Below, one piece after another: positions 6,571 to 7,193 of a stretch of DNA of 8,607 bases (positions within the stretch are counted from its first letter, which is position 1; every line of letters starts with the position of its first letter). The notes beneath the pieces were generated by a model. It did not search any database. It was given only the letters and a program-made list of their open reading frames with translations, and was not told the DNA's origin. The stretch comes from a virus. The translations under genes and the position numbers were made by a program. Location: the UHGV virus genome UHGV-0254280; one strand, written 5' to 3'.

Positions 6571-6589
6571 GCACCCCCCTCCAAGAGAA

Positions 6590-6666
6590 TGAATCTTAGA
6601 ATCTAAATATTTATTTATTGGTGTGTTTATAATTTCTTAGTTTCTAAGTGTCAAGAATTCTAAGTT
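6590..6666. promoter_or_regulatory. Operator-like repeats (TCTAAG / CTTAGA motifs) in the divergent control region
   Basis: Three motif clusters: aatCTTAGAatCTAAat (6591-6607), tttCTTAGtttCTAAGtg (6633-6650) and gaattCTAAGtt (6655-6666). The middle one sits inside the promoter spacer. Confidence 0.5.
6626..6654 (-). promoter_or_regulatory. Sigma70-type promoter for gII
   Basis: On the minus strand: -35 TTGACA (6654..6649), 17-bp spacer, -10 TATAAA (6631..6626), about 50 bp upstream of the gII start. The spacer contains the inverted repeat CTTAG-TTT-CTAAG. A perfect TATAAT on the plus strand (6628-6633) overlaps the -10. Confidence 0.6.
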
Positions 6667-6708
6667 TTGAGATGTATGATGAGGTATGAAAAAACAGAGG
6701 GGATATAT

Positions 6709-6897
6709 ATGCCAACAAAGCACATAAACGATGTTTTATGGAGAAAGGTAGAGAAAGAAACTGTAAAAGTGGTAACAACACTGGCAATACCAGTAAAAGA
6801 TACCAAAGTTTTAGAATGGATAATCGCAAAAGGACTGGAGTCTATAACAGAAGATGACTACAGGAAATTTGCAAAGACGGATGCAACAAAAAAATAA
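6709..6897 (+). CDS. Hypothetical small protein (62 aa), divergent from gII
   Basis: ATG at 6709 preceded by GAGGGG with a 6-nt spacer. Charged, soluble-looking protein MPTKHINDVLWRKVEKETV... On the strand opposite to all phage genes, in an AT-rich segment. No family recognised. Confidence 0.5.
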   Translation: MPTKHINDVLWRKVEKETVKVVTTLAIPVKDTKVLEWIIAKGLESITEDDYRKFAKTDATKK

Positions 6898-6938
6898 CAT
6901 TATAGTTACCTATCGATACGAAGATTGCTAGAAGCAAT

Positions 6939-7094
6939 ATGCAGACAACCAGTGAATTAATTCTTGACCTGCTGATAAAGCATTTCGTTGTTGGCAGCAT
7001 CACAGGCATGACAATATTCAGCCTGATAACGCTTGTCCCACCGTTGGTGATGACCATACACAACAAACTAAGTAAGGACACTGAAATCCTTTAA
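6939..7094 (+). CDS. Hypothetical small membrane protein (51 aa)
   Basis: Manually translated as MQTTSELILDLLIKHFVVGSITGMTIFSLITLVPPLVMTIHNKLSKDTEIL, with one predicted transmembrane segment. Weak Shine-Dalgarno. Followed by a strong hairpin at 7128-7160. Not in the supplied ORF track (below its apparent length cut-off). Confidence 0.4.
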   Translation: MQTTSELILDLLIKHFVVGSITGMTIFSLITLVPPLVMTIHNKLSKDTEIL

Positions 7095-7099
7095 GGTTC

Positions 7100-7193
7100 A
7101 GTGCGCACAATGACGTTATGTATAAAAAGGCCGCTGCGGTGGAGAGTATCGCAGCGGCCTTTTCAACATAACGCGTGTCACATTATGCGCACT
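7100..7193. other. Putative CTX-type attP: two inverted dif-like XerC/XerD sites forming an imperfect hairpin
   Basis: Site A, plus strand 7100-7126: aGTGCGCAcAA-TGACG-TTATGTaTAAA. Site B, minus strand 7193-7163: aGTGCGCATAA-TGTGACACGCG-TTATGTTgAAA. Compared with E. coli dif GGTGCGCATAA-TGTATA-TTATGTTAAAT (recalled). The two sites flank a perfect 11-bp stem and would pair with a bulged central region in single-stranded DNA. Confidence 0.6.
7128..7160. terminator. Strong hairpin, possible bidirectional terminator (gIV on minus strand, small-ORF transcript on plus strand)
   Basis: Stem AGGCCGCTGCG, 11-nt loop, stem CGCAGCGGCCT. T-runs on both sides (TTTT on plus, TTTTT on minus). Also forms the apex of the attP-like hairpin. 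Confidence 0.55.

Follow-up and report, generated by a model that had tools for sequence, protein, structure and literature searches.

Filamentous phages that integrate at the chromosomal dif site usually carry a set of reverse-oriented regulatory genes between the replication gene and the secretin gene pIV (PMC4266046, PMC12715192). In CTXphi of Vibrio cholerae this place is taken by the ig-2/rstR region, in which the small regulator RstR is encoded divergently from rep, and YPO2273 of YpfPhi, FpsR of SW1 and Pf4r of Pf4 are equivalent reverse-oriented regulators (PMC4266046, PMC12715192, PMC3411601). Here we describe the corresponding interval (positions 6571-7195) of the viral genome UHGV-0254280, the whole analysed stretch of which (8607 nucleotides, nt) is referred to as the window. 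The interval encodes two small open reading frames (ORFs) on the plus strand, ORF1 and ORF2, and ends in a large hairpin. Based on the evidence presented below, it is likely that this interval is the lysogeny/regulation module of a dif-integrating filamentous phage, composed of three separable parts, with ORF1 as the repressor. This kind of module is already known; what is new is the regulator protein family, its predicted operator, the promoter map and a membrane peptide linked to the phage attachment site (attP).

The gene order of the module is that of YpfPhi, in which attL is followed by two reverse ORFs without assigned function, an RstR-like gene, an intergenic region and rep (PMC4266046). 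Vibrio prophages of the dif-integrating kind start with rstR adjoining attP (PMC12715192), and a single reverse ORF of the Pseudoalteromonas phage f327 has been assigned to "regulation" (PMC4817708). One of the contigs compared here (L008) has the gene sizes of f327, and its reverse ORF may be that of f327. Three reverse ORFs near dif, h3, h4 and h5, remain unexplained in UPphi901 (PMC7307601); these, as well as YPO2271 and YPO2272 of YpfPhi, are small reverse genes at the dif end that vary between relatives, as occurs in the window (PMC7307601, PMC4266046), a likeness to ORF1, ORF2 and the phrog_2503 proteins in position and description. The sequence-only reading had set the interval against the non-coding intergenic region of the Ff phages. 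This comparison is misleading because the window phage integrates at dif, and reverse-oriented regulatory genes are normal at this position in such phages (PMC4266046, PMC12715192).

ORF1 and its position opposite rep

ORF1 is a full-length match to the PHROGs family phrog_5219 (E = 1.7e-22), which is listed there as of "unknown function". A word-index search retrieved 89 homologues and a full HMMER scan yielded 142 clusters at 50% identity, and the exact protein occurs on 498 contigs, nearly all of them annotated as "hypothetical protein", with two UniRef entries that label relatives of ORF1 as "Repressor". The sequence-only reading could assign neither small protein to a known family, which holds, as no curated family names either of them.

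The alignment of the family shows that M1, K4 and H5 are invariant and that P2, T3, I6, W11, R12 and K13 are kept in at least 90% of the sequences. The conserved head of the family, MPTKHI, is thus found at the extreme N-terminus, which fixes the start codon at ATG 6709 even if a longer, TTG-started version beginning at 6667 appears in the ORF list. The good Shine-Dalgarno sequence that had been credited to the 62-residue ORF was located as well (GAGGGG, 6697-6702, 6 nt 5' of the ATG). Compared with diverged copies from Escherichia coli, ORF1 shows a ratio of nonsynonymous to synonymous substitution rates (dN/dS) of 0.10-0.16, which together with the 89 homologues places it beyond a chance ORF.

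The genomic position of ORF1 was surveyed in 70 IMG/VR contigs, 69 of which extend far enough upstream. In 66 of these 69 viral contigs the ORF1 homologue has a divergent ORF of at least 120 amino acids (aa) that starts within 450 bp, at a median gap of 129.5 bp, and a Pfam scan of the 66 divergent neighbours returned replication-initiator families only (G2P_X_C 50, Phage_CRI 40, Rep_trans 13 and Phage_GPA 1; the same protein may match both G2P_X_C and Phage_CRI, so that these counts can overlap). ORF1 stands opposite II/X-family Rep genes in E. coli relatives, Rep_trans in Pseudoalteromonas, Phage_CRI in Shewanella and G2P_X_C in Pseudomonas aeruginosa; the divergent rep-ORF1 layout is common to three distinct Rep families. 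The interval had been regarded as an accessory insert; instead, ORF1 and the spacer in front of it form a regulatory cassette at the position held by RstR in CTXphi and by YPO2273 in YpfPhi.

Predicted operators and promoters in the spacer

The spacer between rep and ORF1 is enriched in a short repeat. Of the six CTAAG/CTTAG pentamers in the 8607 bases of the window, four lie in this 138-bp spacer, a concentration reached by 5 out of 20000 shuffles. In the 70 contigs the 160 bp located 5' of the ORF1 homologues contain 1.77 of these pentamers per 100 bp, vs 0.095 elsewhere, a 19-fold difference, and at least two copies are present upstream of ORF1 in 66 of the 70 loci. The consensus derived from 61 distinct regions is the palindrome TCTWAGA (W, A or T), repeated with a phasing of about 8 bp: 158 of 185 distances between pairs of units equal 0, 1 or 7 modulo 8. 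The spacers of phages from E. coli, Pseudoalteromonas, Shewanella and the GC-rich Pseudomonas align block for block.

Two predicted operator arrays were delimited in the window (Table 1). Array A, whose block is conserved across four genera in the intergenic alignment, is located inside the 5' leader predicted for the rep transcript. Array B, with exact CTWAG cores at 6636, 6644 and 6660 and a 16-nt spacing in its repeat family (D1), covers the spacers of both divergent promoters. The spacer of the predicted rep promoter is the palindrome CTTAGAAACTAAG. The spacer of this near-consensus promoter is filled by one pair of units, a position suited to repression. This promoter was missed by a stock promoter scan because the scan requires T at position 6 of the -10 element, which reads TATAAA here. 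A strong sigma-70-like promoter on the rep strand was recognized by strict criteria in only 25 of 57 distinct spacers, and in 24 of these 25 promoters the TCTWAGA motif lies within the promoter spacer (0.23 expected from shuffles). The putative ORF1 promoter, the weaker and less secure of the two, was placed from the sequence itself and on the basis of TCAACA-18-TATGAT/TATAAT, which is found at the same place in the loci L002, L003 and L007.

Exchange of the regulator and its repeats

The relatives L001 and L004 encode Rep proteins 98.8-98.9% identical to that of the window, yet beside rep they carry small proteins of the family phrog_2503, not ORF1. The spacer repeats differ accordingly from those of the window, being of the TGCAA type in L001 and GTTAACA in L004; in L005 they are GCATGCGC. 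Conversely, phages with an unrelated Rep and an ORF1 homologue retain TCTWAGA. This double dissociation evidences that the repeats track the small regulator and not Rep. The joint replacement of regulator and repeats is what is expected for a repressor with its operators and for heteroimmune cassettes such as CTXphi rstR.

Short phased repeats beside a rep gene in an AT-rich region are typical of replication origins, and the equivalent region of Ff does hold origins. The units could, on these grounds, be origin iterons or packaging elements for Rep or a host protein, with ORF1 as an accessory replication factor or activator. This explanation is quite unlikely: the repeats are constant beside three Rep families and differ when only the regulator differs (Rep 98.8% identical), and the unit pair lies in the spacer of a near-consensus promoter, from where repression could be exerted. 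A role of ORF1 as activator rather than repressor is nonetheless compatible with the computation, which leaves both.

The limits of the exchanged block are sharp, since matches between near-identical phages stop at 6567 or start at 6692 or 6923. The AT-rich segment with both genes is swapped as a block between related phages. The low GC content attributed to the segment was borne out by the composition of the interval between Rep and pIV, with a GC fraction of 0.305-0.405 (200-nt segments, 6501-7100) vs 0.52-0.59 in the flank towards Rep and 0.47-0.50 in that towards pIV; the values fall to 0.31-0.36 from the rep start (6570) to approximately 7000. A GC content below that of the flanks, the sharp block exchange and the reverse orientation, as well as the fact that the reverse ORFs near dif of UPphi and YpfPhi were described without a function (PMC7307601, PMC4266046), could suggest that the segment is a moron, cargo gained by horizontal transfer whose target is the host and which has no part in the phage life cycle, as had been proposed from the sequence. 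For the segment as a whole this is very unlikely. Inoviruses from at least four genera have ORF1 and its spacer in the same place, for which a core regulatory function is a better explanation, and block exchange is the behavior of heteroimmune regulatory cassettes. For ORF2 alone, the cargo reading is plausible and enters the proposal made below for this peptide.

ORF1 as a candidate repressor

Among the functions that the sequence-only reading had considered for the two proteins, that of a repressor or immunity factor is favored for the 62-residue one by the divergent orientation with respect to rep, the phased repeats over the predicted rep promoter and the cassette swap. ORF1 is, in our judgment, probably the phage repressor and a functional counterpart of CTXphi RstR, although not a member of the same protein family. 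Like the rstR region, the cassette combines predicted operators over the rep promoter with variation between near-identical phages (heteroimmunity) and a location at the attP-proximal end of the dif-integrated prophage. ORF1 differs from RstR, YPO2273, FpsR and Pf4r, to which it has no match, in its length of 62 aa and in that its conserved head is the N-terminus, and the operator predicted for it, unlike those of RstR type, is a 7-bp palindrome with a phasing of about 8 bp. FpsR of phage SW1, tried as a homologue, was discarded as it is a 116-aa Cro/CI protein.

According to this proposal, ORF1 dimers would bind the palindromic heptamer TCTWAGA (candidate operator duplex, TCTTAGTTTCTAAG), reading the DNA through the invariant MPTKHI. 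Occupation of the units in the spacer of the rep promoter would silence the long rightward operon that extends from replication to secretion, and binding to those in the spacer of its own promoter would result in negative autoregulation. In this way ORF1 would set the level of phage replication in lysogens and would confer immunity against phages with the same operators.

Omega of pSM19035, a ribbon-helix-helix repressor that acts on arrays of 7-bp heptads, is the nearest analogy for ORF1. The invariant N-terminus and the palindromic 7-bp unit of ORF1 fit this class and, on weak evidence, its fold is probably ribbon-helix-helix-like. ORF1 resembles omega, CopG, Arc/Mnt of P22 and the N-terminal domain of TraM in its size and in a predicted extended N-terminus followed by two helices, and the short palindromic units arranged in contiguous phased promoter arrays, characteristic of omega-like repressors, are also found in the ORF1 spacer. 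In contrast to these proteins, ORF1 shows an additional C-terminal helix (residues 48-61), an 8-bp instead of a 7-bp register and no family match. The AlphaFold model (mean predicted local distance difference test, pLDDT, 88) places residues 1-7 in a free, non-helical segment and predicts helices at 8-25, 31-45 and 48-61; it was computed as a single chain, and a monomer cannot form the N-terminal ribbon strand.

Proteins of about 170-320 aa that open with an ORF1-like domain (residues 1-50) were also detected (P0156, P0198 and P0204). When ten of these long proteins were scanned, three showed weak, sub-threshold matches to P-loop/STAND NTPases downstream of the domain and seven had no Pfam match. 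The ORF1 domain may be reused as the DNA-binding head of larger proteins.

Various observations weigh against this interpretation of ORF1. No Pfam family was matched at E values up to 1, neither helix-turn-helix nor ribbon-helix-helix, NCBIfam gave nothing meaningful, and PADLOC yielded no match. The profile search against PDB sequences produced no match better than E = 0.1 and none to a ribbon-helix-helix protein; the profile of the phrog_2503 regulator family gave only chance matches in the same type of search. Foldseek comparisons with PDB and viral models returned nothing significant (best viral E = 0.24), including an E of 1.1 for CTXphi RstR among the viral models (BFVD), and the alignment of the ORF1 profile to that of the phrog_2503 regulators, even if in the expected register, was weak (probability 8%). 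Regarding the promoters, less than half of the spacers show a strong rep promoter, as mentioned above, and that of ORF1 is weak and uncertain in the window, where it was not the top plus-strand match in the promoter scan. In addition, an operator and a reading head that are invariant across genera are odd for an immunity determinant. Finally, in L004-type phages ORF1 is the third small gene and has no TCTWAGA nearby, the repeats near rep being GTTAACA; since the units are not nearby, ORF1 cannot regulate the rep gene of these phages.

The arrangement just mentioned was observed in two E. coli relatives, L004 (1995-2706) and L013 (173-828), which contain two phrog_2503 genes followed in a row by an identical ORF1; this ORF1 looks like an orphan repressor without operators of its own. 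In L015 (E. coli 2015C-4136CT1; 2330-2420) the first small regulator gene is shortened by a stop codon and the downstream ORF2 and attP are intact, and it may represent a prophage without a working repressor.

ORF2, a membrane peptide linked to attP

The single transmembrane segment ascribed to the 51-residue product of ORF2 was recovered, with residues 16-34 as the top 19-residue segment (mean Kyte-Doolittle value, 1.85), and AlphaFold predicts one long helix. The flank preceding this segment has a net charge of -1 and the one following it a net charge of 0 to +9; thus, judging from the sequence, the N-terminus is probably outside and the C-terminus inside. All variants, down to 63% identity, preserve ORF2 with its 51 codons, and both plus-strand genes proposed to lie opposite to all phage genes are real. 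A 57-aa relative contains an N-terminal SE(L/I)ILDL(L/M)xKH motif, a hydrophobic core and a basic tail (alignment A3). No family match was obtained for ORF2 in Pfam, PHROGs, NCBIfam or PADLOC, nor did a translated search of the GenBank phage collection give any match for the two types.

The Shine-Dalgarno sequence of ORF2 is weak and its dN/dS is only 0.4-0.6, which counts against its being a gene. A 79-aa ORF on the antisense strand (Table 1), where all other phage genes lie, is open throughout the variants, the 57-aa family included, and has a dN/dS (0.23-0.51) as low as that of ORF2. As the wobble positions are shared, this ratio cannot separate the two frames, a further point against ORF2. 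It could therefore be argued that 6898-7094 is non-coding or that the true gene is the antisense ORF. However, the ORF2 frame shows conservative substitutions (mean BLOSUM62, 0.0 to +0.6 over six pairwise comparisons) and the antisense frame radical ones (-0.86 to -1.33 over five informative pairs), and the identity between the 51-aa and 57-aa families by codon position in the ORF2 frame (21/30/14 of 45) follows the usual coding pattern, with a total BLOSUM62 of 70 vs 40. Moreover, ORF2 retains its start, length and stop, the ends of the antisense ORF vary, and the membrane-peptide architecture is retained across the ORF2 families. It is then unlikely that ORF2 is not a gene, and the antisense ORF is probably not one.

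Taking ORF2 as a gene, its association is with attP and not with ORF1. The stop codon is always 3-5 nt before the attP stem, and the ORF2-attP block is 98% identical in L001, where ORF1 is replaced. The ORF2 profile retrieved 11 viral contigs, and ORF1 is not directly upstream in any of them: the gene 5' of ORF2 encodes another regulator in ten (four phrog_2503 variants or an Xre-type helix-turn-helix protein) and a 188-aa protein in the remaining one (L095). Likewise, no ORF2 relative follows the ORF1 homologue in L003, L007 and L009, in which the downstream sequence is readable. The view of ORF1 and ORF2 as a functional pair was consequently abandoned, as the genes are not inherited together.

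This finding also bears on the suggestion that ORF1 and ORF2 constitute a toxin-antitoxin or addiction pair, a ribbon-helix-helix antitoxin, autoregulatory as well, with a membrane-damaging toxin that stabilizes the prophage. ORF2 does resemble a small hydrophobic toxin, and the architecture of the peptide would fit a type I membrane toxin (Hok, TisB, Ldr), but no Rfam antisense-RNA family was found and neither PADLOC nor Pfam gave a toxin match. Furthermore, the predicted ORF1 sites overlap the rep promoter and not just the promoter of ORF1. Since the two genes separate across relatives (3 loci; 11 contigs), such a pair is highly improbable, and a two-component immunity pair is unlikely for the same reason.

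ORF2 is located downstream of the candidate repressor gene, with no terminator or stable structure in between (Table 1), and for this reason it is expected to be made in lysogens, where it would share the ORF1 transcript. By analogy with the exclusion genes of repressor operons, it might be tentatively proposed that ORF2, as an inner-membrane peptide with an acidic N-terminus and a basic C-terminus, takes part in superinfection exclusion or envelope modulation. This guess, close to the exclusion or host-modulating peptide considered in the sequence-only reading, may well prove wrong. A sequence of about 45 nt between the two genes, ACATTATAGTTACCTATCGATACGAAGATTGCTAGAAGCAAT (6898-6938; L004, ~2175-2220; L015, ~2505-2550), recurs exactly at the joints of exchanged cassettes and precedes a different gene in L004 and ORF2 in L015. 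Such a sequence may mark a recombination joint or provide a common region for translation initiation.

The attP hairpin

YpfPhi and CUS-1 are classed as CTXphi-type with respect to integration, and the attP of CTXphi, RS1, YpfPhi and CUS-1 consists of an inverted pair of dif-like sites that pair in the packaged strand and leave an unpaired central bulge (PMC4246890, PMC4266046). The same organization is found at the end of the module. The strong hairpin predicted there is real and larger than had been described, extending over 7098-7195; as single-stranded DNA of the phage coding strand it folds with -40.9 kcal/mol (z = -10.5 vs shuffles), and the identity of its XerC arms to dif is 9/11 and 10/11. 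The prophage ends of L003 and L005, located beside hipA, show a host-type arm ...TTATGCGCACC (CACC) joined to the phage central region, the phage having CACT, and in L001 the tandem array has at its opposite end a dif site with one mismatch and a phage-type end. The hairpin had been taken for the end of the segment; more than a terminator, it is shown by the fold and the junctions to form the core of a folded attP of the CTXphi type, through which XerCD integration at dif would proceed. In the packaged single strand the paired inverted sites would form the XerCD substrate, and XerC would exchange one strand pair with the chromosomal dif. Integration at dif, a junction at the boundary between XerC arm and central region and tandem prophages are shared with CTXphi-type attP. 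Here, as a difference, the sites flank a GC-rich terminator-like hairpin and the gene of a membrane peptide ends 3-5 nt before the stem.

The RNA of this GC-rich core folds with -30.1 kcal/mol (z = -7.9) on the plus strand and -29.3 kcal/mol (z = -9.4) on the minus strand, followed by UUUU and UUUUU, respectively, and it is probably a bidirectional intrinsic terminator for the ORF1-ORF2 and pIV transcripts. A stock terminator scan missed it because of the 11-nt loop. The Rfam search over the whole window gave only a far-below-threshold match of a microRNA model on the attP hairpin.

The attP hairpin region (7091-7219) has matches in 929 of 5426 complete E. coli genomes, and 484 of the places are on plasmids. 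One plasmid copy (L011, 2831-3110) holds an ORF2-like 57-aa gene and an attP remnant between insertion sequences. Inovirus remnants with this type of attP seem to be common at dif and to be present on plasmids too.

Genome context

All recognizable inovirus genes of the window are encoded on the minus strand and the gene set is that of a complete filamentous phage, small coat proteins included (Table 1). The closest relatives are E. coli prophages (94-98% identity), one of them in a head-to-tail tandem array, and a megablast search of the GenBank phage collection with the window gave no match at the DNA level.

Table 1. Coordinates of genes, predicted regulatory elements and attP components in the window
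Feature	Position	Strand	Description
pI/Zot	557-1759	minus	
pVI	1776-2135	minus	
pIII	2135-3487	minus	Phage_Coat_A
pVIII	3539-3799	minus	
pV-like gene	4114-4539	minus	
Rep	4570-6570	minus	P2 gpA-type replication endonuclease; Pfam PF05840 Phage_GPA, E = 2.4e-48
rep start	6568-6583	minus	GTG 6570-6568; Shine-Dalgarno-like GGAGGGGGG, reverse complement of 6575-6583
Operator array A (predicted)	6595-6607		Units CTTAG 6595-6599 and CTAAA 6603-6607, 8 bp apart; repeat family D2
rep promoter (predicted)	6626-6654	minus	-35 TTGACA 6654-6649, 17-nt spacer, -10 TATAAA 6631-6626
Operator array B (predicted)	6634-6673		Five successive ~8-bp units: TTCTTAGT, TTCTAAGT, GTCAAGAA, TTCTAAGT, TTTGAGAT
ORF1 promoter (putative)	6651-6680	plus	-35 TCAAGA 6651-6656, 18-nt spacer with TCTAAG unit, -10 TATGAT 6675-6680
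ORF1	6709-6897	plus	62 aa; ATG 6709; phrog_5219; repressor-like, predicted ribbon-helix-helix-like
ORF1-ORF2 spacer	6898-6938	plus	RNA fold z = 0.08; no terminator-like site in scan
Antisense ORF	7081-6842	minus	79 aa; GTG start after AAGGA; open in all variants, variable ends
ORF2	6939-7094	plus	51 aa; single-pass membrane peptide
Folded attP, CTXphi type	7098-7195	minus	Two inverted dif-like sites; 6-nt central bulge 7180-7175
attP site 1	7100-7126	plus	AGTGCGCACAA-TGACG-TTATGTATAAA
attP site 2	7161-7193		Reverse complement; AGTGCGCATAA-TGTGACACGCG-TTATGTTGAAA
GC-rich core of hairpin	7129-7163	both	GGCCGCTGCG, 11-nt loop, CGCAGCGGCC; flanking T runs
pIV secretin	7247-8455	minus	

The intergenic region between pI and pIV (1-556 and 8456-8607) contains a tandem unit of about 339 bp that runs across the ends of the window: positions 1-204 are 98% identical to 340-543, and 148-261 are 96% identical to 8494-8607. 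Positions 115-217 of each unit have 80-95% identity with 3732 plasmid records, most of which are small mobilizable plasmids. This sequence seems similar to the PriA (n') primosome assembly site of ColE1/pBR322; if this likeness is true, two or three copies of a complementary-strand origin of plasmid type may be present in the phage. In the pIII gene, a Gly/Ser-rich linker is encoded by an extended series of imperfect repeats of 39 nt and 30 nt (2590-2880), a region for which copy-number differences have been reported among the UPphi phages (PMC7307601).

Implications

A broader interpretation, to which we assign a low probability, is that ORF1 represents an unrecognized and widespread class of inovirus immunity repressors. 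If this were true, MPTKHI and TCTWAGA would have stayed unchanged in Enterobacterales, Pseudomonas, Shewanella, Pseudoalteromonas and marine metagenomes, and phages with unrelated replication genes would share one immunity type. The orphan ORF1 of the L004 and L013 type would act solely in trans, silencing rivals for the same dif site, and the attP-bound ORF2 would be a second, independent factor for exclusion or for the control of integration.

Filamentous phages that integrate have an influence on both virulence and biofilms in Vibrio, Yersinia, Pseudomonas and E. coli, and the control of such phages is understood for just a few helix-turn-helix repressors. The reading of ORF1 as a repressor with TCTWAGA operators provides phrog_5219, a family present in at least 70 viral contigs, 142 clusters and several genera, with a proposed function, an operator sequence and a promoter map. 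It also offers a possible account for the unexplained reverse genes beside dif in the inovirus prophages of E. coli, which numerous clinical genomes contain. In practice, regulator type, repeat type and attP may together serve as a set of markers for prophage borders and immunity types.

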